IMG/VR virus record: IMGVR_UViG_2529293144_000007
Source of the DNA: a virus
Taxonomy: Duplodnaviria > Heunggongvirae > Uroviricota > Caudoviricetes
DNA: 42,671 nt
Reading direction: 5' to 3' (one strand)
In this document: positions 14,913 through 42,671 of the stretch, one piece after another
Numbering within the stretch: position 1 is the stretch's first letter
Layout of the letters: every line of letters begins with the position of its first letter
Notes under the pieces: model-generated
Databases searched by the model: none
What the model saw: only the letters and a program-made list of their open reading frames with translations
Told to the model about the DNA's origin: nothing
Program-made: the position numbers and the translations under genes

Positions 14913-16871
14913 TTACGCCGTACATTTCACCAGACCGCGGTGATCAACTGGCGCGACACCGGCGTCAATACGCACTTTCGTTGTCACGCCATCCACACTG
15001 AAGCCCTCCATCTGATCAATATATGGCGTATCCACACCGTTGAGATAAGCCACTTCAATCGTATCGGAGCCTTTTGACGCAGCCAGGTAGAAGGTGGTCT
15101 GGCTGTTATCATCAAGACGAGGCTCTGCAATAACGGTCGCAAAATCTTTCACCGGGTTAATAATACCGGCGTTAATGTCAGCCCCCTTGACACTTGAGGA
15201 GCGAATGACCTGGTTAGCAACAGACTCCATCGCCGTCGGTACCAGTACGAACGCAGGACGAATATTCAGATGACGCTCCCCCTCTTTCTGAACGCGCATC
15301 AACTGGCGGGCTTTATCCAGCGATGCCACGTCCATTGCAGCGCTCTCCAGTACGTTTGCATGTTTCGCTTTATCGAACAGACTTACATTATCTGTGGAGA
15401 TTTTCGGGTTAGACGTCAGAATGGCATAAACCAGATCGGCAATAGTGGATTTCGCCGCACGGCCCAGTTTCATCGGGACATCGGTCAGCATATTCAGATC
15501 ATCATTGATAATGGCCTGACGGGTGATACTGAACAGCTCGCCATAGGTCGCCAGTGCAATAGTGGCCTGTTTATCTCCGGTGGTGACGTATTTATATTCC
15601 GCCCCTTCACGCACCTGACGCAGAGCACTGAAGCCCCCCATACCCACACGATGGGCAATTTTAAAATCAGACAACTGACCTTTCCGCGTCCACTGTTCAT
15701 AGGTTTCAGGGGCATCTTCCCAGCCCTGCAGAATGGCTTTGTTCGCAACATCCAGCAGAATATTACCGAAGTCAGACGTACTGTGTGTGAACGCCGCACC
15801 GACCATCTGCATCGGGTTATAACTGGAAACCCCAATACCCCGTTCAGTCAGTGACATACGGGCATATTCACGCAGGGTCATCCCGTTGTAGACATTATCA
15901 CGTTCGGTTTTTTCAAATCCGGCACGCGCCATCAGCGCCTGGCGGATCCCGTCCCCCACAAAATTACCGTTACCGGCATAAATATGAGCCGGGGTATTTT
16001 TATTGGATGGCGTGGACTCGCGCCCCATCTCGTTCAACAGCTTTTCGCGGGCCTGCTCCAGCGAACATTCAGGATCGGCAAGACACTGAGCCTGCAGCGA
16101 CTGATAACGCCCGCCAAACATGGCAAACAGATCATTAATACCGTTTACACGCGCTTTTTGCTCTGCCAGGACCTGCGCACGGATGCTGTTTTCATCCACC
16201 ACGGGTGCTGCTGCCTGCACTGGCGTCCGGGAGGCTGCAGGTTCATCATCCTGTACGCGTGGAGCACTGTTGCGTGGCGGAGTAATCATGTTTCGAATGG
16301 ATTCCGGCATCTTTTTAAATTCCTCTGTACGTTTTGACTGAATACATGCCATTGCCTTAACGGCTGGCGTTACCTGATCAGCAAATCCATGTGCCAGACA
16401 TTCGGCACCGGACATCCAGGTCTCATCCACCAGCATGGCAGCAATTTCATCGGTGGTTTTCCCGGTTTTCTGTGCATAAGCGGGTAACAGAACCGCCTCA
16501 ACCTTATCGAGCAGGTCGGCATAGGTGCGCATGTCCTCCGCATCACCGCCCGTAAAGCCAAATGGTTTATGAATCATCATGAAGGTGTTTTCCGGCATAA
16601 TGACCGGGTTTCCCACCATCGCAATGACCGACGCCATTGACGCCGCCACACCGTCGACATAAACGGTAATGGACGCACCATGTGTTTTCAGCGCATTAAA
16701 AATGGCGATGCCTTCAAAGACATCGCCACCCGGTGAATTAATATGGAGATTAATGTGGGTGATATCGCCCAGTGCATTCAGATCACTGATAAACTGCTTC
16801 GCTGTAACACCCCAGAAACCAATCTCGTCATAAATATAAATATCCGCGTCACTCTGGTGACCAGCCTGCAT
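14913..16871 (-). CDS. prohead protease (ClpP/S49-like) fused to major capsid protein
   Basis: N-terminal part has a ClpP-like signature (INSPGGDVFEG...MMIHKPFGF); C-terminal ~300 aa is major-capsid-like. Start set at MQAGHQ; the track ORF extends upstream into the portal overlap. Confidence 0.8.
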   Translation of the reverse strand: MQAGHQSDADIYIYDEIGFWGVTAKQFISDLNALGDITHINLHINSPGGDVFEGIAIFNALKTHGASITVYVDGVAASMASVIAMVGNPVIMPENTFMMIHKPFGFTGGDAEDMRTYADLLDKVEAVLLPAYAQKTGKTTDEIAAMLVDETWMSGAECLAHGFADQVTPAVKAMACIQSKRTEEFKKMPESIRNMITPPRNSAPRVQDDEPAASRTPVQAAAPVVDENSIRAQVLAEQKARVNGINDLFAMFGGRYQSLQAQCLADPECSLEQAREKLLNEMGRESTPSNKNTPAHIYAGNGNFVGDGIRQALMARAGFEKTERDNVYNGMTLREYARMSLTERGIGVSSYNPMQMVGAAFTHSTSDFGNILLDVANKAILQGWEDAPETYEQWTRKGQLSDFKIAHRVGMGGFSALRQVREGAEYKYVTTGDKQATIALATYGELFSITRQAIINDDLNMLTDVPMKLGRAAKSTIADLVYAILTSNPKISTDNVSLFDKAKHANVLESAAMDVASLDKARQLMRVQKEGERHLNIRPAFVLVPTAMESVANQVIRSSSVKGADINAGIINPVKDFATVIAEPRLDDNSQTTFYLAASKGSDTIEVAYLNGVDTPYIDQMEGFSVDGVTTKVRIDAGVAPVDHRGLVKCTA

Positions 16872-16884
16872 CCTGAACCAGGAA

Positions 16885-18393
16885 TTATTCTTCGGACTGG
16901 TCGTCGGTGTGCTGCGGCTCCTGTCGTTTCGTTGCGGCACTGCTGCCTCCTTTATCACTGGCCGGATCGGTATCAAATACCAGATCCAGCTTGCGGTTTT
17001 CATCAATTTCGGCCTTGCGCCGACGTTTGACATCATCCGGATTACGACCACCAGCACGTACCCAGTCTGATTCTGTCGCCGCTCCACCACGAATCTGGAT
17101 TTTCCAGGCCTCAGCCTCCTTAACAGGGTCAATCCACGGCATCACCGGTCCGGAATACACCGCGGTATACAGTGAAGAACGGTCAAGATCGCGGGGTAGC
17201 CTGATAACACCGGATGCCACAGCCTGTTTCAGCCAGGCACGATACATCGGGCGGGTGACGGCACCAATAAACCAGTCCTGCAGGATCAGGTAGCCATCAG
17301 TAGACTCAACCAGTTCCTGACGCTGGGCGCTGTAAGTGCCGTTATAGTTGCGTGCCGTACTGGAAAAACTCAGACGACTGCCCGCCGCCACGGCACGCAA
17401 CTGACCATTACGAAAAGTTTCAAGGTTAGGATTGGGACGATCCGACTTCACCATTCCGATTTCTTCGCCGGGTTTCAGATCGTCGTAAATAATGCCTGGC
17501 TGAATGGTAAGCTCGCGTTCATTCTCCTTGCTGCCATTACCATCCGGTTCATAGCTCTGCCCGTCGCCTTTCCGGATGTACATCCCCAGAGCAGCGGCGA
17601 TCCTTGCTGCAGTCAGCTCAGAATCTTCATACTCTTTCAGGGCACTGAGGCGGATCAGCACACCGGACAACAAAGACGTCCCGCGCATCTGGTGCAGACG
17701 GCGAACAAATTTAAGATGCAGCATTCGCTCTGCATCCACTTCTTTGGTTTCCATCTGCCGCCCGGATACGGGACGGCTTTTATACACCAGATATTTTTCG
17801 GGACGCCCCCAGTCATCAACAAACACGCCCTGATTCAGCCTGTTGCTCTCATCACTGGTCATGGGAATAAAGTCCGGCTCGAGCGCCTCCAGCCAGAAAT
17901 GAACACCGGCAGAAGGCGTCAGGCTGTTTATGCGCCCGGAAACCATCTGGGCAAACACCTCACCATCGCGCAGCCAGGTACGCAGCATCAGACGTTCCAG
18001 CATCGGACGGGTAAACTGCCCGGTGACTTCCGGACTGACAGACCATTCACTCCATCGGGTGCGTATCTCCGCTGCCAGATCACGGGCAATGGCCCCATTG
18101 CGTAATACCGGATGTGGCTCGACAATAATCCCGTTTTTCCCCACCACCCGTTCTTCCAGCTTGTCAAATACACCAATAACCAGATCGTGGTTGTTATCAA
18201 GGTAACGGGCCTGCTCACGTAACGACACGGCCCCGTACTGGCTTAACTGGTCGGCAGTTCGGTTTTCCCGCCGGGCTTTGTGTGTCCGCGTCGTTTTTAC
18301 GGCCTCATAAGCCTGGATCACCGCACGGGAACGCAGCCTTGCCGCTTTCCATCCTGGTGAAAAAACGCCAATCACATCATCAAGAATTGCCAT
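16885..18393 (-). CDS. portal protein (lambda gpB family)
   Basis: About 500 aa between W and the protease-capsid gene; start at MAILDDVIGVF overlapping the W stop (TGATG). Confidence 0.85.
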   Translation of the reverse strand: MAILDDVIGVFSPGWKAARLRSRAVIQAYEAVKTTRTHKARRENRTADQLSQYGAVSLREQARYLDNNHDLVIGVFDKLEERVVGKNGIIVEPHPVLRNGAIARDLAAEIRTRWSEWSVSPEVTGQFTRPMLERLMLRTWLRDGEVFAQMVSGRINSLTPSAGVHFWLEALEPDFIPMTSDESNRLNQGVFVDDWGRPEKYLVYKSRPVSGRQMETKEVDAERMLHLKFVRRLHQMRGTSLLSGVLIRLSALKEYEDSELTAARIAAALGMYIRKGDGQSYEPDGNGSKENERELTIQPGIIYDDLKPGEEIGMVKSDRPNPNLETFRNGQLRAVAAGSRLSFSSTARNYNGTYSAQRQELVESTDGYLILQDWFIGAVTRPMYRAWLKQAVASGVIRLPRDLDRSSLYTAVYSGPVMPWIDPVKEAEAWKIQIRGGAATESDWVRAGGRNPDDVKRRRKAEIDENRKLDLVFDTDPASDKGGSSAATKRQEPQHTDDQSEE

Positions 18394-33680: not shown

Positions 33681-33892
33681 CAAAACAGAGAAGAGCATCA
33701 TCGGACGACGGGCTCATAACCCAATCCATCCGGGCGGCTGCCACCGCAGGTGTTCTTCTCTGTTTTGTGGAGAAACTAACCGCCCCTACGGGGGCATTTA
33801 TGGAAATGTAATTGACTCAATAATCGACGGACGGTGAGGGCTTCCTTTTACCCGAATTCAGCGCGGTGCAGCGCATATACGTGGAGAACAAA

Positions 33893-34429
33893 ATGTCATT
33901 TATTAAAACTTTTTCCGGGAAGCATTTTTATTATGACAGGATAAATAAAGACGACATCGTTATTAACGATATCGCAGTTTCCCTTTCAAATATCTGTCGC
34001 TTTGCAGGACATCTTTCACACTTCTACAGCGTCGCCCAACATGCGGTGCTTTGCAGCCAGCTGGTACCGCAGGAATTTGCTTTTGAAGCGTTAATGCATG
34101 ATGCAACAGAAGCGTATTGCCAGGACATCCCGGCTCCACTGAAACGCCTTCTTCCTGACTATAAACGGATGGAAGAAAAAATAGACGCCGTAATCCGTGA
34201 GAAATACGGGTTACCCCCGGTTATGAGTACACCCGTGAAATATGCCGATCTCATCATGCTGGCAACCGAACGCCGCGATCTCGGGCTTGATGATGGCTCT
34301 TTCTGGCCTGTGCTGGAAGGTATCCCGGCAACAGAGATGTTCAACGTGATTCCACTGGCTCCAGGCTATGCCTACGGGATGTTTATGGAACGCTTTAACG
34401 AATTATCGGAGTTACGCAAATGCGCATGA
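33893..34429 (+). CDS. HD-domain phosphohydrolase
   Basis: HD motif (LMHDATEAY) and upstream His; start at MSFIKTF with GGAGAA RBS. Confidence 0.7.
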   Translation: MSFIKTFSGKHFYYDRINKDDIVINDIAVSLSNICRFAGHLSHFYSVAQHAVLCSQLVPQEFAFEALMHDATEAYCQDIPAPLKRLLPDYKRMEEKIDAVIREKYGLPPVMSTPVKYADLIMLATERRDLGLDDGSFWPVLEGIPATEMFNVIPLAPGYAYGMFMERFNELSELRKCA

Positions 34430-35053: not shown

Positions 35054-35260
35054 ATGCTGAACCTCGATTGTGTTCCAATCTCAACTTATTGCAAAGAAAC
35101 TGGCGAAACTCCTGAAGCAATAAACAAACGTGTACAGCGCGGTGTTTGGCGTGAAGGTGTTCAGGTTTTAAAGGTTGAAGGCGTTAAGGAGAGGTGGATT
35201 GATCTTAGTGAGGTTGCAAAATGGGCCAGACAAAACTGCTCAAACTACCGCGCGGCGTAA
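35054..35260 (+). CDS. excisionase-like DNA-binding protein (putative Xis)
   Basis: Small basic protein immediately upstream of and overlapping int; start at MLNLD with GGAGAAA RBS. Confidence 0.55.
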   Translation: MLNLDCVPISTYCKETGETPEAINKRVQRGVWREGVQVLKVEGVKERWIDLSEVAKWARQNCSNYRAA

Positions 35261-36396
35261 CAATCAGGAAACACCGCCAGGGCGAAACGATCAATATAAC
35301 TTTCACCTACAAAGGAGTTAAATGTCGTGAGCCTCTTTCCAATCTGGAAGTAACACCAAAGAACATTAAATACGCCGAGCGCACACTCGGCGAAATTCAT
35401 AATAAGATCGAAAGGGGAACATTCATTTATGCGGAATATTTTCCCCGTTCTGCTCGTTTGAAAATTTTTGGTAATGCTGTTGCAGGCAAAACGGTAAAAA
35501 TGTACCTGGACGAATACCTTGAAATCTGCGAAACGAGAAAACTCTCACCCTCAACGATTGGTGGTTATAAAAAATGCCGTAGTGCGTTAGCCTCACTCCA
35601 CATTTGCCCTGCAAGTGAATTAACACCAGCAATCCTGAAAGCGTGGATTCAAAGCCAGAAAACGACCTTAAAAACAATTCGCAACCAGTTATCTTTCCTG
35701 CGGTCAGCACTTGATGAAGCCGTAACCGATGGGGTACTTCAAATTAACCCCGTATCGTTGGTAACTGCTTCGCGCTACCAAAGTGATAAGTCAGAAGCAG
35801 AAAGCAGCTACGTGGTTGATCCGCTATCACCAGCAGAAGTTGATGCATTACTAGCAGCAGCCGGAAACAAACAATGGGAAAATCTGTTCCGGTTCGCCAT
35901 ACATACAGGCCTGCGTAGTTCTGAATTATGTGCCCTTCGTTGGCGTGATATCGATTTTGTAGGGAAAACTGCCCACGTTCAGAACGCCAGTGTAGTTGGC
36001 GTAATCAAGGGGACAAAAACAAAAGCCGGTACACGAAAAGTTGAACTGAATGAGGAAGCAATGGCAGCTCTGACAAATCAGAAACCGTTCACGTTCATGA
36101 AGGACGCTACTGTCTTTGAAGATCCAAAAACCAATAAGCCGTGGGCAAGTGCTGATGCAATTAGAAAAAAAGCATGGGTCCCGACATTGAGAAAGGCAGG
36201 TATTCGATACAGAAACCCATATCAGACTAGGCATACATTCGCCACCAGCCATATCAGCCGGGGAACAAACCTTTTCTGGCTTGCAGCTCAAATGGGGCAT
36301 AAAGGGCCAGAGATGCTTTTTAGACACTATGGTCGGTATTTGAAGGAATATGACAACAATACATCTTTAAATAAATTGAAAACAATTAATAAATAG
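35221..36396 (+). CDS. tyrosine integrase (lambda Int family)
   Basis: 391 aa with N-terminal arm-binding-like region and C-terminal catalytic signature (RHTFAT ... HKGPEMLFRHYGRY). Confidence 0.9.
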   Translation: MGQTKLLKLPRGVTIRKHRQGETINITFTYKGVKCREPLSNLEVTPKNIKYAERTLGEIHNKIERGTFIYAEYFPRSARLKIFGNAVAGKTVKMYLDEYLEICETRKLSPSTIGGYKKCRSALASLHICPASELTPAILKAWIQSQKTTLKTIRNQLSFLRSALDEAVTDGVLQINPVSLVTASRYQSDKSEAESSYVVDPLSPAEVDALLAAAGNKQWENLFRFAIHTGLRSSELCALRWRDIDFVGKTAHVQNASVVGVIKGTKTKAGTRKVELNEEAMAALTNQKPFTFMKDATVFEDPKTNKPWASADAIRKKAWVPTLRKAGIRYRNPYQTRHTFATSHISRGTNLFWLAAQMGHKGPEMLFRHYGRYLKEYDNNTSLNKLKTINK

Positions 36397-36403
36397 ATAA
36401 TAA

Positions 36404-36429
36404 TCCCCATCAGTAAATACTGATGGGGA
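36404..36429. other. perfect 11-bp-stem hairpin immediately after int
   Basis: TCCCCATCAGT-AAAT-ACTGATGGGGA; overlaps the start region of the next ORF. Confidence 0.4.
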
Positions 36430-36437
36430 CTGAAAAG

Positions 36438-37235
36438 ATGTCAGGTAACATGACTACAATATTATCTTGCTTTGCTGCTCTTGTTTCTGCTGCGACTGCT
36501 ATATACGCAATCAAACAGTCGAACTTACAAAGAAGATTGTCATATAAGCCACAACTTTATATTGAGGATTACCGTGACAAATACTTTGCTCCAACTACTA
36601 ATACCTTCGACCATGGTATAAATGGCAGACCTACCTTTAATCTCCATGAACTTTCAATAATAAACATTGGAAATGGCTCAGCTCAAAATATAAAATACAA
36701 ATGGGTATATAATTATAGCAATGCTTTAAAGGACATTTCATCTATCATTGAAAAACTGGGAGCCTCAAAAAACAATAAAATTAATTTATTCAATTATGAA
36801 GTCGTTGAGCATAAAAAAATAATCATTAACGATAAATGTTTTAACATCCATTTCAATTTCAACGAGAAATATATATTACCTCAACATCAAATAGAAGGTA
36901 ATTTAAAAAACACAATAATACACTTGCCAATTATATTAACAACTGTACTATATAACTTGATTAATCTTAGATTATTAGCGGGTGAGACATTAGAAAGCGT
37001 TCATGGTCCTAAGCTAGTTATTACATACCAAGATTCAGGCGGCGCTCTCATCACTGATCATTTTGAGAGTGAATTTATTCTCAAATCTTCCACACAAAAT
37101 ACAAGTCAGACCATACAAAACGTTAGAATGACATTTAGGAAATTGGACCGTCATTGGACACAGCAATCACATCAATGGAGCCGTAAAAGTCACGCAGAAA
37201 CTACTGAAGAAAAAGAAATCAATTATTTCAGTTAG
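36438..37235 (+). CDS. AT-rich cargo protein of unknown function with N-terminal TM anchor
   Basis: About 266 aa from MSGNMTTILSCFAALVSAATAIYAI; located between int and the att fragment. Confidence 0.6.
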   Translation: MSGNMTTILSCFAALVSAATAIYAIKQSNLQRRLSYKPQLYIEDYRDKYFAPTTNTFDHGINGRPTFNLHELSIINIGNGSAQNIKYKWVYNYSNALKDISSIIEKLGASKNNKINLFNYEVVEHKKIIINDKCFNIHFNFNEKYILPQHQIEGNLKNTIIHLPIILTTVLYNLINLRLLAGETLESVHGPKLVITYQDSGGALITDHFESEFILKSSTQNTSQTIQNVRMTFRKLDRHWTQQSHQWSRKSHAETTEEKEINYFS

Positions 37236-37242
37236 TTATAAC

Positions 37243-37279
37243 ATTTCGGACATGGGTTCAACTCCCGCCAGCTCCACCA
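37243..37279 (+). other. ssrA (tmRNA) 3'-end fragment, candidate att core / prophage junction
   Basis: ATTTCGGACATGGGTTCAACTCCCGCCAGCTCCACCA matches the last ~37 nt of E. coli tmRNA as recalled, with two mismatches; upstream sequence is unrelated to tmRNA. Confidence 0.75.
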
Positions 37280-37313
37280 CTTTTTAGTTGTTTGAAGTTC
37301 AATGAAGTCTACT

Positions 37314-37347: not shown

Positions 37348-37444
37348 ACGTCTATTGTCGTCCAGTGAGAATTGCTGAGAACTACGAGTTATGGCACCCT
37401 GAATGGGACCCACTAAGAAGGGTCCAAAAACCGAGGGTCCCAAA

Positions 37445-38674
37445 ATGGCAAAAATCGCTAAGAAGCTCACTGACACTGAAATCAAAAGCACCAAGCCAGC
37501 CGATAAAGAAATCAACTTGTTTGACGGTGATGGTCTGATTCTACGAATCGCTCCTTTGGCGAAAGGAGGCAAGAAAAATTGGTATTTCAGGTATGCAGTA
37601 CCAGTGAGCAAGAAAAGAACCAAAATGAGCCTTGGGACATATCCTCACCTTACCCTTGCAAGAGCCAGAGCCTTACGTGATGAATATCTCTCCTTTCTGG
37701 CAAATGGTGTTGATCCCCAAATCCATAACAACGATAAGGCGAAGGCATTAAAGAGTGCTACTGAGCACACTCTCCAAGCCGTAGCGCGGAAATGGTTAGA
37801 TGAGAAGGTAAAGACATCAGGTATCTCACAAGACCATGCAGCAGACATCTGGCGCAGCTTAGAGAGAAATGTCTTTCCCGGTCTGGGTAATGTCCCTATC
37901 AATGAGATCCGACCTAAGCTCTTAAAACAACACCTTGATCCTATTGAGCAACGAGGCGTATTGGAAACTCTACGCCGTATCATTTCACGTCTGAATGAAA
38001 TCTTCCGGTGGGCAGCTACTGAAGAACTTATTGAGTTCAACCCGGCTGACAACCTTGGTCAAAGATTCAGTAAACCAAAAAAGCAAAATATGCCTGCCCT
38101 TCCCCCAAGCGAATTGCCAAGGTTTATGGAATCTTTGACGAATGCGTCAATCCGGTTGGAAACACGTATGCTAATTGAATGGCAATTGTTGACATGGGTT
38201 CGTCCGGGTGAAGCCGTTCGCGCAAGGTGGTCTGATATTGATACAACCAACAGCATTTGGAACATTCCTGCTGATTTCATGAAAATGAAAAAGCTTCACA
38301 AAGTTCCTTTGAGTAAAGAAGCTTTGCGCATCCTTGAATTAATGAAATCAATAAGTGGGCATAGAGAATGGGTTTTCCCCAGCATAAAAGCGCCTCTTAA
38401 TCATATGCATGAACAAACAGCCAACGCAGCTATCATCCGAATGGGGTTCGGAGGCGAGCTTGTAGCTCACGGTATGCGTTCTATTGCACGAACAGCGGCA
38501 GAGGAGTCTGGTAAATTCAGAGCTGAAGTTCTTGAGGCAGCGCTTGCCCACTCGAAAAAAGATGAAATTATCGCAGCATACAATCGTGCAGAATATCTGA
38601 TAGAGCGACAGAGTTTGATGCAATGGTGGAGTGATTACGTTCAAGCTCAAAGATCAAATGCTCTGGTAGCCTAA
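37445..38674 (+). CDS. P4-type tyrosine integrase (IntA-like)
   Basis: N-terminus MAKIAKKLTDTEIKSTKPADKEINLFDGDGL typical of P4/CP4-57 integrases; C-terminal catalytic region (HGMRSIARTAA). Confidence 0.85.
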   Translation: MAKIAKKLTDTEIKSTKPADKEINLFDGDGLILRIAPLAKGGKKNWYFRYAVPVSKKRTKMSLGTYPHLTLARARALRDEYLSFLANGVDPQIHNNDKAKALKSATEHTLQAVARKWLDEKVKTSGISQDHAADIWRSLERNVFPGLGNVPINEIRPKLLKQHLDPIEQRGVLETLRRIISRLNEIFRWAATEELIEFNPADNLGQRFSKPKKQNMPALPPSELPRFMESLTNASIRLETRMLIEWQLLTWVRPGEAVRARWSDIDTTNSIWNIPADFMKMKKLHKVPLSKEALRILELMKSISGHREWVFPSIKAPLNHMHEQTANAAIIRMGFGGELVAHGMRSIARTAAEESGKFRAEVLEAALAHSKKDEIIAAYNRAEYLIERQSLMQWWSDYVQAQRSNALVA

Positions 38675-38712: not shown

Positions 38713-39129
38713 ATGGAAACCCTATTCAAAGTTTTTGAAAAATTTAGTTCCAGACCACTTTTTTTTATTTTTTTCGGACTCTCACTTTGTGAATTTTTTC
38801 AGAAACAATCTGTTCTGATGAATCCATCAGCAGATAACATCGCGAAATTATTCGCAGCCATGATATTAGTTGTTTTTTTTACTTGGGGATTTGAATGGCT
38901 AATCTTCAAGTTCAATGTAAACCTTGAACCTCATGATCAAGGCGATATTGGACCAACAATTGGAACGGCTACTTTAGCTGTATACTTAGTTTATGCCTTT
39001 CACTTTCTCAGTGAAAATCCTGAAGCATTAAATTTAAAGTTATTAACTAACTCTGGCTTTATATACAGCACAACTCTATTATTATTCTCATTAGAATGCA
39101 TGAAGCTTAGAAGACTTAAACAAAAATAA
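38713..39129 (+). CDS. hypothetical polytopic membrane protein
   Basis: 138-aa AT-rich ORF with several hydrophobic segments. Confidence 0.5.
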   Translation: METLFKVFEKFSSRPLFFIFFGLSLCEFFQKQSVLMNPSADNIAKLFAAMILVVFFTWGFEWLIFKFNVNLEPHDQGDIGPTIGTATLAVYLVYAFHFLSENPEALNLKLLTNSGFIYSTTLLLFSLECMKLRRLKQK

Positions 39130-39352
39130 ACAACATCATTGTGATGATAAATATAAAATAGGCATGGCGAAAAAAAATCACCACGCCTAAAATATAATAA
39201 TTATGGTAGCATCATTGATACATAATAATCCACACCAATCCTTGAGCTATACTGAGACGCTATAGCCTGATATCTTTCTGCATAACCAGTTCTCAGTTGA
39301 GATTTAAGTTTGAGTCGGACAGGAACATTTTGCACGTTGCCATCCATATTAC

Positions 39353-40969
39353 TTAAAAACACGGCAGAAATAATATTTTTTCTTCGCCATCAACTGTTGT
39401 TCCATGATTCAACACCACCATATAATCAACAACAGGAAGCGTTTTATCCCCTTCGAAAATAGAGAGATATTTTCTTTGATTTTTATGCATTACATATATA
39501 TATTTCGAATGTTCAGCAAATGGCAATGCTTTACTCTGACTGGCGTTAAAAAGCTCCAGAACTTTAATGAGCCTGTGCGGACTTAATCTTACATGGTGAG
39601 GGTCGTTACACTGAGTAGGAACCAAATCACATGCCGCAGATACACATAAATACCATTTGTTCGACTCTGTATCAAAGAAAATAGTGCCAGTAGAAATATG
39701 ACCATCTTCAAAATTCTTTGAAGACAAATTCATATTTAAAGCATGATACATTTCGTGATAAGTATCATTATTTGATGGCAGATCCATTTTTGAAGAGCAA
39801 TATTGGAGCAATGCAGCAACTCCGCTGTTAGCGTATTCATTTGAATAGCTATCAAAAACACTTTTGATAAATTCATCCAGCGTATTATTATTTTTAAGTC
39901 TTTGATAAAGCTCTTCTGATAAATTACCAAATACAAAGTCAATATTTCTACATCTAATATCAGGCGAGTCTGATTTTAATATCTCATTTAACCACGCAGC
40001 TTGACCGTAATGATCGTTAGCCAAATGATTTACAAAAGATAAAGCCTCAGCTTCGATTGCATTCTGAATTTCAGATTTTATTAACTGATAATAAGATGGT
40101 TTCCATTCAATGAGAGAATCATTGAGAGTTTGCCAAATCCTATCTCCATCGTTTTCATGATCATCTTGAACCTTATGAAATAGGGAGACAAAGATATTAC
40201 CACATTGAATCCATTTTACTCCGCTTTCATCACCCCGAATGACATTGCCAGATGTGTTGCTAGAAATAATTGCATTTCTAGACACAGCATATTCTGCAAT
40301 CATTTTTGCAATGAAGTTTTTATCCTTTTGATCCTCCAACACAGCATCATCATGTATTAATCTTTTAATTCTTCTACAAGGCTTACTGTCTTTAATATAG
40401 GCTATTGTTTCATCTCTTGTGAGAGCTTTATTACCATTATCATTTAAGTTCGGTAATACAACGTCTTCCCAATAACTTTGGACATCTTCATTATCGTAGT
40501 CAATGATCAAGCTGTTGATATCCAGAGCACCTTTGAGAGTCGATGATATCTGCATCCAAACCGTTTCTAAATTCTCTCTAGTATATATTACAATCATTTT
40601 TAAATGATCGGAGTCTTTCAAATCTTGTAATAGTTTAAGTGTTTTATCAGGTGCATTATTATCAAGATGATAATCTACAATAATAAGATCTGATTTTCTA
40701 ATCCGATCCACATCGAAATTAACAGAACCATTGTCAACATCACAAATCATATTTTTAGATTGAAAAAAGCTCTCAAGAGTAGCGGCTCGTTTAGATGAGT
40801 CAATTTTGTTGTAGTCTAAATCAACTTCGTTATTCAACGCCCTGATTGATTCAGAATACGTCAGAAAATCGTCATCAATCATGACAACGGAACGAATTGC
40901 ATTTTCGCAGAAAGTTTTCTGGACAAGAGAATTATAATTTGCCACTGTCATATTAGAACTCCACTCCAT
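39353..40969 (-). CDS. receiver (REC)-domain protein with large uncharacterised C-terminal domain (putative effector)
   Basis: N-terminal REC-like signature: VVMIDDD acidic pair, DLIIVDYHL candidate phospho-Asp strand, MIVIYT; about 380 aa C-terminal region without recognised motifs. Confidence 0.6.
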   Translation of the reverse strand: MEWSSNMTVANYNSLVQKTFCENAIRSVVMIDDDFLTYSESIRALNNEVDLDYNKIDSSKRAATLESFFQSKNMICDVDNGSVNFDVDRIRKSDLIIVDYHLDNNAPDKTLKLLQDLKDSDHLKMIVIYTRENLETVWMQISSTLKGALDINSLIIDYDNEDVQSYWEDVVLPNLNDNGNKALTRDETIAYIKDSKPCRRIKRLIHDDAVLEDQKDKNFIAKMIAEYAVSRNAIISSNTSGNVIRGDESGVKWIQCGNIFVSLFHKVQDDHENDGDRIWQTLNDSLIEWKPSYYQLIKSEIQNAIEAEALSFVNHLANDHYGQAAWLNEILKSDSPDIRCRNIDFVFGNLSEELYQRLKNNNTLDEFIKSVFDSYSNEYANSGVAALLQYCSSKMDLPSNNDTYHEMYHALNMNLSSKNFEDGHISTGTIFFDTESNKWYLCVSAACDLVPTQCNDPHHVRLSPHRLIKVLELFNASQSKALPFAEHSKYIYVMHKNQRKYLSIFEGDKTLPVVDYMVVLNHGTTVDGEEKILFLPCF

Positions 40970-42671
40970 TGAACTGGATCACAAAATTAGCGCCATCTTT
41001 TATTAAATAGTTATCGCCTTCATCAGGTTCTGAATACCATATTTTATGATGTGCAACAGCAAGGTTTTCTCGACATAGATACAGACCTACCCCATGTCCA
41101 TTTGCTCTTTTGCTATAAAATAGTTCAAATAGTCGCGGGATATCATCGGTATCAATTGCCGGACCAGAATTTGCTATGATAACCAAAGAATTCACAAAAC
41201 CAATCTTTATGAGCCTATTATTTGACAGACTGACCCAATACATTGCATTGTTGATAATATTAGTAAAAACAGGATAGATCCTTGATGGTATATCTGTTAT
41301 TGCGATTTGCTTAAACTCTTCACTAAATTCAATAGTTATTCGTTGCCGTTCGAAACGCTCCCCAAAGAACTTCAGGACATAATCCATGATATTTTTTCCA
41401 GTTATTCTCTGCCTGGATTGATAACCTGATATTTTCAAAGGTGATAAGAAACGTATTTGTTGAGTAAGCGATCTGTGAGCATTTAACGCCAATGAAAAAC
41501 CAGGGTGTTCTTTTACAGAAGTAGGAAGAGAGTTTAGTCCTCTGGTTACCATAGAATCCATTTCTTCAAGTTCATGAGATATTATCTCAACACTAATACC
41601 TAACTGTGCAAGCGCGTTTAAACTTTTAGCTTTTTCTTCAAAATATGAGCGTTCTTCTTCAGATAATGAGAATGCTGAATCTAAGTTTATACCTTCAAAT
41701 AATCTATCGAGACCTTTTATTATTGATTGATATTTGAAAGTTAGGGTATCAACTGACTCAACATATAAACTATCGAGCAAATTAAACACATTTTCAATTT
41801 GTGAATCATTATCTATTGAATCAACAACTGATATAGTTTTAGCATAATAATCACTTCGATCAACCTTTATTTCATCGGCCCATTTTTTTAAAAGAGAATG
41901 TATCTTCTCCTCTATCGTGTTATTAAACTTAGTTAGTTTAGAATTAATAATACCTTGATTTTTTTCAAGGTGATTTTTCGCTGACAATGAAGGCTCAAGT
42001 TTATTTAATTCAGAATCAAGTTTATTAATTGCTAACTTCATTTGTAGAATATACGCAGAGAACTCATTAAATTTATCTCTGTAGTCTCTATATTTCTCTT
42101 CATACATTCCAAGTTTTGGAGGTTTGATAGGCGTTTTAATTTCACTGCGCAACGCATCTAAGTTTGTAAGATCACTGTCTATAATTTTAAGATAGTTTAA
42201 ATCTAACGAACCATCAGTTTTATCAAGCTTAGTTTTCAGCCTTTTAACAGCCTCCAAGGAAGCATCAAGAACTGGTGTCTGATTCTTCAAAGCTTCTGAA
42301 AAACTTTTTTGTGTTGATTTTCGAGCTTGTTGTTGAGCAGATTTTCTTAACTCTTTTTCACGCTTAACTTGTTCTAAAAGCTCTTTACGGTCATCAGAAC
42401 GTGAACCAAAAAATCTATCAGCAAGTTCAGTTAACAAATTAGATATAATAGTTTTCAGTTCTCTTGCAGCCTGGTTTCTTATGAATCCCTCTCTCCCCGA
42501 CTTATCTTTCAGCTCTTTATTACTGGATTGAGTAATTCCAATATAACCAAAAATCCTTCTATTAGACCAATAATATCGCCCTGCATTCCATGAACGTCTT
42601 TCTTCTATCTGGAAGAAATCATTATCTACTCGACCATAAGGTAATACTCTCAAGCTATCCCTAAAAATCAT
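40953..42671 (-). CDS. histidine-kinase-like protein (coiled coil, H-box, HATPase_c); may continue beyond the window end
   Basis: H-box-like ISHELEEMDS about 105 aa upstream of N-box FTNIINNAMYW, G1-like ANSGPAID and G2 GHGVGLY; the Met at the window edge may be internal. Confidence 0.6.
   Translation of the reverse strand: MIFRDSLRVLPYGRVDNDFFQIEERRSWNAGRYYWSNRRIFGYIGITQSSNKELKDKSGREGFIRNQAARELKTIISNLLTELADRFFGSRSDDRKELLEQVKREKELRKSAQQQARKSTQKSFSEALKNQTPVLDASLEAVKRLKTKLDKTDGSLDLNYLKIIDSDLTNLDALRSEIKTPIKPPKLGMYEEKYRDYRDKFNEFSAYILQMKLAINKLDSELNKLEPSLSAKNHLEKNQGIINSKLTKFNNTIEEKIHSLLKKWADEIKVDRSDYYAKTISVVDSIDNDSQIENVFNLLDSLYVESVDTLTFKYQSIIKGLDRLFEGINLDSAFSLSEEERSYFEEKAKSLNALAQLGISVEIISHELEEMDSMVTRGLNSLPTSVKEHPGFSLALNAHRSLTQQIRFLSPLKISGYQSRQRITGKNIMDYVLKFFGERFERQRITIEFSEEFKQIAITDIPSRIYPVFTNIINNAMYWVSLSNNRLIKIGFVNSLVIIANSGPAIDTDDIPRLFELFYSKRANGHGVGLYLCRENLAVAHHKIWYSEPDEGDNYLIKDGANFVIQFNGVEF

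Follow-up and report, generated by a model that had tools for sequence, protein, structure and literature searches.

The locus lies at the end of the window, the whole 42,671-nucleotide stretch of the virus record IMGVR_UViG_2529293144_000007 (Caudoviricetes). Two minus-strand open reading frames are found here, at 40953-42671 and 39353-40969, in a region where the GC content is 0.33-0.34 (39-42 kb) compared with 0.5-0.6 in most of the window. The upstream frame encodes a histidine-kinase-like protein and the downstream frame a receiver-effector protein; the genes are adjacent and co-oriented, with the kinase stop codon (40953-40955) one base from the receiver start at 40951. A fragment resembling the 3′ end of ssrA is located at 37244-37280 on the plus strand, with two mismatches to the ssrA 3′ end of Escherichia coli SE11 (L001, 10236-10280), and the sequence downstream of this att fragment is identical to SE11. 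It marks the junction between an upstream lambdoid prophage and an older P4-type island. ARAGORN detected no complete tmRNA in the window. The fragment is followed by a P4-type tyrosine integrase of 423 aa (37403-38674, plus strand) with three Pfam domains (Arm-DNA-bind_3, 2.2e-22; Phage_int_M, 2.7e-23; Phage_integrase, 1.9e-19), and the same integrase gene stands 3′ of ssrA both in SE11 and in an intact form of the element from other Enterobacterales (L003/L004). The initial annotation, which had described two AT-rich genes in the cargo of an ssrA-integrated element beside a P4-type integrase, was therefore accurate as to the setting.

A gene for a hydrophobic protein of 138 aa (38713-39129, plus strand) is convergent with the receiver gene and has neither a Pfam nor a PADLOC match. 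It adjoins the pair in E. coli, in L003/L004 and in Salmonella (L006/L007), is missing at the Acinetobacter and Acidobacteria loci, and is an enterobacterial island neighbour outside the conserved core. The pair itself was present in 586 of 5426 complete E. coli genomes, about a tenth, each time within this ssrA island.

The kinase-like gene (40953-42671, minus strand) is truncated at its 5′ end, and its 572-aa product shares 99.1% identity with residues 417-988 of a 988-aa relative (P0148). Pfam profile searches gave two matches above cut-off, HEF_HK (PF19191; residues 356-414, 41430-41606), which is marginal at 26.1 bits versus 24.1 (1.2e-5), and HATPase_c (PF02518; residues 462-553, 41013-41288), at 44.9 bits versus 26.4 (1.8e-11), in agreement with the GHKL/HATPase_c kinase core with an H-box that had been proposed on first reading. 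The H-box histidine is His366 in SHELEE (41574-41576), equivalent to His782 of the 988-aa protein, and the N box NIINNAMYW (41235-41261), the G1-like box ANSGPAID (41151-41174) and the G2 box NGHGVGLYLC (41073-41102) lie on the same strand; the kinase motifs, including SHELEE, are kept in 18 full-length relatives. The G1 box has asparagine at the position of the usual kinase aspartate, and given this substitution ATP use by the protein is putative. The protein is soluble, in line with the earlier remark that no TM sensor was visible. Its coiled coil, DHp and catalytic HATPase_c domains are retained, but it is devoid of the paraMORC HATPase_c_3 domain, which P0148 carries at residues 28-137 (PF13589).

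The receiver-effector gene (39201-40951, minus strand) belongs to the Response_reg_2 family and is a pseudogene in the window. Its 538-aa ORF (39353-40969) matches PF19192 at 4e-31, with 109 bits versus a cut-off of 27. The segments MIDDD, DLIIVDYHL and MIVIYT, which had suggested a receiver-like N-terminus, coincide with the family-invariant residues D26, D27, D88, D93 and T124, and the receiver fold was confirmed. In AlphaFold models a receiver-like domain spans about 40166-40951 and is followed by a helical domain at about 39722-40150; the beta-rich effector domain covers 39201-39721 and is frameshifted in the window. The effector region has no Pfam match, consistent with the earlier description of a receiver fused to an unrecognised effector. 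Its only structural resemblance, a weak one, is to toxins of the MazF/CcdB/Kid fold, and the domain is confined to the receiver-effector family, which comprises 627 clusters; in nearly all of them it occupies about residues 260-600. No DNA-binding output was recognisable in the receiver protein, and searches of the kinase-like and receiver proteins turned up no nuclease fold.

The intact receiver-effector allele encodes 582 aa (P0001/WP_000214990.1). Alignment with the allele of E. coli O111, together with the gene alignment and conservation data, placed a 1-bp deletion at 39376-39381 (minus strand), where a run of seven A residues in the intact allele is reduced to six. This shift converts the last 57 residues (526-582) to seven unrelated residues and ends the 538-aa ORF early; the final pair of long strands and the helix at the C-terminus are lost, and with them the invariant L553 and R554 and the R571/G573/D575 motif. 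PGAP labels the identical copy of SE11 as 'frameshifted', and exactly this allele was found in 77 of 560 E. coli genomes. Two other changes on the same strand were a 3-bp (ATT) duplication near the original stop codon (39223-39229), which adds a tyrosine in the old frame and is common to the window and L012, and a G448C substitution (39608-39610) in the conserved PTQGNDPHH segment of the effector domain, identified from the gene alignment and homologue comparison.

Relatives with about 99% DNA identity occupy the same ssrA site in other Enterobacterales (L003/L004). Their gene order is a DNA_methylase, a 988-aa HATPase_c_3/HATPase_c protein and a 582-aa Response_reg_2 protein, encoded by ORFs that overlap or abut, and the 988-aa protein combines paraMORC-GHKL, HEF_HK and HATPase_c modules. 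Salmonella has the same three genes, as do a Tn7-like element of Acinetobacter junii and a conjugative element from Acidobacteria. A C5 methylase was present in L003, L004, L005, L006, L008 and L010 but not in either of the two E. coli islands for which flanking sequence was read; the methylase of the intact relatives matches type II methyltransferase models (MTase_II) at 6.7e-80. At the Acinetobacter locus an HTH gene lies upstream of the methylase, a placement like that of controller proteins in restriction-modification (R-M) systems. Between the receiver gene and its counterpart in the intact element there were 12 synonymous changes and one nonsynonymous change.

Comparison with these relatives accounts for the short kinase-like protein. 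Its ORF starts at what is the internal Met417 of the 988-aa protein, and in both SE11 and O111 the DNA homology to the intact element L003 ends at about kinase codon 376, the methylase gene having been deleted together with the first ~375 codons of the kinase gene. In these genomes the stretch of kinase codons ~376-416 (about 120 bp) gives way to an IS3 or an alpha-amylase pseudogene. No N-terminal part of the kinase was found upstream in these two complete E. coli genomes with flanks read, and the ORF is thus not merely cut by the end of the window. A scan for promoters ahead of the truncated O111 gene gave nothing above chance. The top-ranked E. coli homologues are nearly all 572 aa, a few being slightly longer or shorter, and the 99%-identical proteins of Klebsiella, Serratia and Salmonella are 988 aa. 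The 572-aa proteins of Salmonella L006/L007 were considered as independent truncations and rejected: there the kinase ORF stays open over 996 codons, with its ATG overlapping the methylase gene, which makes the 572-aa version an artefact of annotation.

The E. coli copies have continued to decay. Set against the O111 allele, the window has two nonsynonymous changes, no synonymous change and two indels. Eight E. coli alleles, a sample biased toward the most divergent, displayed 14 nonsynonymous and four synonymous SNPs (dN/dS about 0.9), and these same alleles carry four further independent frameshift or nonsense lesions (one nonsense). Pseudogenes are flagged by PGAP in several genomes, and some copies contain IS insertions. 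The E. coli alleles are evolving neutrally. Having neither the methylase nor the sensor ATPase domain, and with an effector stripped of its conserved C-terminus, the module in the window cannot work, and the proposal of a working two-gene system is not supported, the intact unit having three genes. That a single deletion took out both the methylase and the sensor domain could be due to chance and not to selection, and the truncated pair may have residual activity in strains without this frameshift allele (483 of 560 E. coli copies).

The pair had been put forward as a candidate novel system, a claim that is superseded because PF19191 and PF19192 were defined on exactly this gene pair, with E. 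coli members among the representatives (Bellieny-Rabelo, Pretorius & Moleleki, Genome Biol Evol 2021, PMC8011034). That study reported 91.6% linkage of the two genes, frequent upstream C5 methylases and an N-terminal HATPase_c_3 in 83% of the HEF_HK family (PMC8011034). The window copy resembles the family in having both Pfam domains above threshold, adjacent co-oriented genes, a soluble kinase with a C-terminal HATPase_c and a position in a mobile island, but differs in lacking HATPase_c_3 and a linked C5 methylase and in the frameshift of its receiver gene. The searched literature held no experimental characterisation of the HEF_HK/Response_reg_2 family. In Table S5 of DefensePredictor, WP_000577254.1 (the kinase-like protein of the window) and WP_000214990.1 (the intact receiver allele) both carry the label 'Predicted novel defense gene' (DeWeirdt, Mahoney & Laub, Science 2026, PMC13092281). 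Their log-odds of 6.64 and 12.05, respectively, against a strict threshold of 4 make the suggested defence role plausible; neither protein is in the table of cloned/validated units of that study (PMC13092281).

The likeness to Detocs (DtcA kinase, DtcB Hpt, DtcC receiver-PNP) drawn in the initial annotation extends to a His-Asp phosphorelay into a non-transcriptional effector, which is predicted here. The pair has neither an Hpt protein nor a nucleoside phosphorylase, the intact sensor is a methylase-tied paraMORC ATPase, and PADLOC v2 returned no relevant match to Detocs or any other system for the window or the intact proteins, with no third small gene in the operon; the resemblance was therefore discarded. 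The pair also departs from canonical two-component systems, as no PF00512 or PF00072 match was obtained and the residue at His+4 in SHELEE is glutamate, not the threonine or asparagine of the phosphatase motif. The N-terminal HATPase_c_3 domain of the intact relatives, beside a methylase, recalls the paraMORC/MutL-like GHKL ATPases of R-M contexts (Iyer, Abhiman & Aravind 2008), and the HHblits search of DefensePredictor gave a remote match to MzaB of the Mza system (Gao 2020) at 95% probability (PMC13092281). The full-length 988-aa protein did not match the PADLOC Mza model. We know of no paraMORC or Mza system in which a kinase module of DHp and catalytic domains, or a receiver partner, has been described. 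With respect to type II R-M systems, the intact relatives have a methylase that matches MTase_II, the searches of both partners gave no nuclease fold, and the window has no methylase. Two further candidates were rejected: the preprint on the methylation-associated defence system (MADS) brings in a histidine kinase solely as a gene at the island boundary, providing no link, and the paraMORC mentioned with WonAB, GrwAB and VcSduA of Vibrio cholerae is a GHKL-Shedu fusion of another architecture.

These observations make it likely that the pair is the decaying remains of a three-gene module on a mobilisable ssrA-integrating island, and that the intact module is R-M-like; the window locus is probably a fossil of this known family. 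It could instead be supposed that the truncated kinase core (DHp and catalytic domains) still phosphorylates the receiver-effector without methylase or paraMORC, forming a working minimal two-gene defence or signalling system. The H-box, N box, G2 box and receiver catalytic residues are undamaged in the window, the frameshift allele is missing from 86% of E. coli copies, both proteins were scored as defensive by DefensePredictor, and a 'group 2' architecture without HATPase_c_3 was described in 34 of 222 proteins of the family (PMC8011034). We nevertheless consider this very unlikely, as the effector frameshift in the window precedes the most conserved C-terminal motifs, the kinase ORF begins at an internal methionine of a deleted gene with no above-chance promoter signal upstream in O111, and the E. 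coli alleles combine a dN/dS of about 0.9 with repeated independent disruptions; furthermore, at least some of the 572-aa proteins of 'group 2' type are start-site misannotations of full-length ORFs.

Another possibility, suggested in the 2021 paper, is that the intact pair is a regulatory cascade controlling the expression or activity of neighbouring R-M genes and is not itself restricting or toxic. While R-M domains are over-represented within ten genes of the pair (PMC8011034) and a ScoMcrA-SBD/HNH_2 gene lies near it in Salmonella L006, no DNA-binding output could be recognised in the receiver protein, whose effector domain is exclusive to one protein family of 627 clusters, and in L003, L008 and L010 the methylase is the only conserved R-M-type gene, leaving no separate nuclease to regulate. 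We regard this role as unlikely. An ordinary housekeeping two-component regulator conserved at the locus has next to no chance of being the right description. The catalytic domain is weakly like the AtoS, DcuS and PhoR kinases (NCBIfam), but all of these scores are far under cut-off (for example 36 bits versus 646), and there is not a single HisKA or Response_reg Pfam match. The pair is found in just 586 of the 5426 E. coli genomes, sits in AT-rich, integrase-linked DNA and has near-identical copies on mobile elements of other genera; its distribution and context thus refute the housekeeping reading.

For the intact three-gene module we propose a mechanism that would operate like R-M. The C5 cytosine DNA methylase would mark the host's own DNA, and the paraMORC ATPase would detect DNA that is unmarked or foreign. 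Sensing would lead the C-terminal catalytic domain to drive autophosphorylation of the H-box histidine, from which the phosphoryl group would pass to Asp93 of the receiver and switch the effector on. The weak MazF/CcdB-type likeness of the effector suggests growth arrest, not a classical restriction nuclease. More tentatively, the intact relatives might represent a new kind of R-M-like immunity, in which a MORC-type DNA-clamping ATPase detects missing cognate C5 methylation and signals through His-Asp phosphotransfer, one-way as the phosphatase motif is lacking, to a receiver-gated, toxin-like effector without a solved fold counterpart. Some methylase-independent activity of those E. coli alleles whose receiver gene is intact would be a less likely extension of this immunity model.

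The locus is thus a pseudogenised remnant that roughly one in ten complete E. coli genomes carries. Its family is already represented in Pfam and has been predicted to be defensive by a published machine-learning method. Short start-site annotations appear to have spread from the abundant 572-aa truncated protein of E. coli onto intact genes of other species, and the published 'group 2' architecture may therefore be inflated. Tests of the predicted E. coli system would be better served by the intact three-gene operon of Klebsiella, Serratia or Salmonella than by the E. coli two-gene fragment. The family joins a MORC-like ATPase, a kinase core, a receiver and an effector to a methylase, which makes it a reasonable target, and if the model of R-M-like immunity is true, the window would be a pointer to that system rather than a working example of it.

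The gene pair consists of two tightly packed minus-strand ORFs in the ORF listing of the window, one kinase-like (40953-42671; 572 aa) and one receiver-like (39353-40969; 538 aa), both lying in DNA with a GC content of 0.33-0.34 compared with 0.5-0.6 over most of the window. Pfam searches, which the initial annotation had recommended, matched the kinase-like protein to HEF_HK (PF19191, residues 356-414) and HATPase_c (PF02518, residues 462-553), each above the gathering threshold, and the receiver-like protein to Response_reg_2 (PF19192, 4e-31). The H-box (His366; 41574-41576, minus strand) and the N, G1-like and G2 boxes (41073-41261, minus strand), read earlier by eye, sit where these profiles place them, and the kinase motifs are kept across 18 full-length relatives. 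The G1 box reads ANSGP (41151-41174, minus strand; residues ~916-923 of P0148, the 988-aa kinase-like protein of an intact element). Because asparagine here replaces the adenine-contacting aspartate of histidine kinases, a substitution kept in at least 80% of the 18 relatives, the nucleotide preference is uncertain and may be altered.

The adjoining integrase is P4-type and the segment at 37244-37280 copies the 3′-end of ssrA with two mismatches, in agreement with the island first proposed. A 138-aa hydrophobic protein is encoded convergently with the receiver gene (38713-39129, plus strand). It accompanies the module in every enterobacterial ssrA island seen, is missing from the Acinetobacter and Acidobacteria loci and is not conserved beyond Enterobacterales. 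Most of the window (1-36400) is a lambdoid-type prophage inserted in ssrA upstream of the older island, making tandem elements at a single att site; in E. coli O111:H- strain 110512 the same place is held by a different, IS-disrupted prophage. Between the lambdoid integrase (35221-36396) and the ssrA fragment lies an AT-rich orphan ORF (36423-37235, plus strand; 270 aa, GC about 0.35) with a hydrophobic N-terminus and no match in Pfam or PADLOC, at a typical place for prophage accessory or defence cargo. Another prophage ORF (33866-34429, plus strand) shows weak HD-domain/YfbR-like 5′-deoxynucleotidase similarity (3.2e-5, just under the Pfam cut-off).

The suggestion that the pair is a novel system was not borne out, as Bellieny-Rabelo et al. 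had already derived PF19191 and PF19192 from this very pair (PMC8011034). In that study the two genes were linked in 91.6% across 644 loci; C5 methylases were often upstream, restriction-modification domains were over-represented nearby, HNH_2 was the commonest nuclease domain, and the main kinase-like architecture was HATPase_c_3 + HEF_HK + HATPase_c (PMC8011034). WP_000577254.1, annotated on the E. coli SE11 sequence that is identical over the gene pair, and its intact neighbour WP_000214990.1 are both listed as 'Predicted novel defense gene' in DefensePredictor Table S5 (log-odds 6.64 and 12.05, respectively), and neither is in the table of cloned units (PMC13092281). The proposed classifier check gave no call, PADLOC v2 having no model for either protein, and no experimental study of the pair was found in the searchable literature.

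Intact modules were found in relatives. Klebsiella, Serratia and Salmonella encode 988-aa proteins that share 99% identity with the 572 aa encoded in the window. The locus of one of these proteins (L003/L004) lies at the same ssrA site and shares the integrase and the 138-aa gene. In it a DNA_methylase gene (402 aa) is followed by the 988-aa ORF, which overlaps it by 20 bp, and then, one base on, by a 582-aa Response_reg_2 gene; a relaxase and more recombinases lie beyond the trio. The full-length protein carries PF13589 at residues 28-137. The same trio is present in an acidobacterial conjugative element, in Salmonella, and in a Tn7-like element of Acinetobacter junii with a convergent methylase gene that has an HTH gene upstream. 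Just past the 138-aa gene, one Salmonella locus (L006, 9775-10650) encodes a ScoMcrA-type SBD + HNH_2 protein that looks like a modification-dependent nuclease, in agreement with the published prevalence of HNH_2 (PMC8011034).

A separate model of the C-terminal 321 residues of the receiver protein (pLDDT 83.8) shows a bundle of helices and, after it, a beta-rich domain ending in a helix. The initial annotation had recognised no motif here; Foldseek returned nothing significant, and neither PDB sequences nor Pfam gave a profile match. Its own profile retrieved 627 clusters from 1.84 billion representative proteins. In nearly all of them the domain occupies about residues 260-600 of ~600-aa proteins, and so always comes after the receiver domain; shorter matches look like fragments. 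The domain is thus specific to the HEF_HK/Response_reg_2 family. A weak structural likeness to MazF/CcdB-type toxins is a lead only.

In its intact form the module is obligatorily tied to a type II-like C5 methylase and travels on mobile elements, and one locus has an HTH gene resembling a controller; these three features point to a restriction-modification-like logic. The paraMORC ATPase, placed where kinases carry a sensor domain, is the candidate sensor of DNA state. The H-box, N box and G2 box are conserved, as are the receiver Asp/Asp/Asp/Thr/Lys residues, which points to phosphotransfer from kinase core to receiver. Since Glu occupies the His+4 position and the T/N phosphatase motif is missing from PF19191 family-wide, the switch would be one-way.

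In E. coli the module survives as a fossil. The 3.7-kb region in the window is 100% identical to SE11 and many other strains and is carried by 586 of 5426 complete E. coli genomes, always on the chromosome. The SE11 order is smpB, ssrA, integrase, 138-aa protein, receiver gene (annotated as a frameshifted 'response regulator receiver domain'), kinase-like gene (572 aa, 'ATP-binding protein'), IS3 and an alpha-amylase pseudogene; O111:H- 110512 has this order without IS3 and an intact 582-aa receiver gene. In both, DNA homology to L003 begins at the att site and ends at L003 position 11127/11128, kinase codon ~376. A single deletion thus took away the methylase, the remaining element and the entire Bergerat ATPase domain, and the 572-aa ORF is the stretch from the first in-frame methionine (Met417) onward. 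In SE11 an IS3 lies exactly at the deletion junction within the kinase gene (L001 ~15795-17016) and in O111 the same junction directly abuts the truncated pseudogene (L002 ~11791); the SE11 arrangement reflects either an IS-mediated deletion or a later IS3 insertion. Neither complete genome contains the kinase N-terminus upstream, so extending the contig, as had been advised, would probably recover nothing. Within the window an A7-to-A6 deletion (39376-39381, minus strand) frameshifts the last 57 receiver codons, removing the family-invariant L553, R554, R571, G573 and D575; this allele is common to 77 of 560 E. coli genomes. Two further changes in the gene are an ATT insertion and the substitution G448C within the conserved PTQGNDPHH stretch. 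Eight E. coli alleles differ by 14 nonsynonymous (one nonsense) and 4 synonymous changes (dN/dS about 0.9), plus an 11-bp deletion and two more 1-bp indels; PGAP flags pseudogenes in three of the six genomes sampled, and other copies have ISVsa5 or IS3-family insertions. Against the intact element, by comparison, the receiver gene shows 12 synonymous and 1 nonsynonymous change, so selective constraint was present before the deletion and gone after it. The original observation is confirmed, and its interpretation holds in part: the pair is two-component-like, on a mobile island and probably defence-related. The claim of a novel system fails because the family is published and because the copy in the window is dead.

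The truncated form may also have shaped annotation elsewhere. In Salmonella enterica the kinase-like ORF (L006 3993-6983; L007 2247-5237) is open for 996 codons from an ATG overlapping the methylase gene. The annotated protein is nonetheless 572 aa, so that 1.25 kb after the methylase appears as an 'empty' gap. The short start has the look of a misannotation, perhaps copied from the truncated protein so abundant in E. coli, and such starts may inflate the 'group 2' class, without HATPase_c_3, of the 2021 paper.
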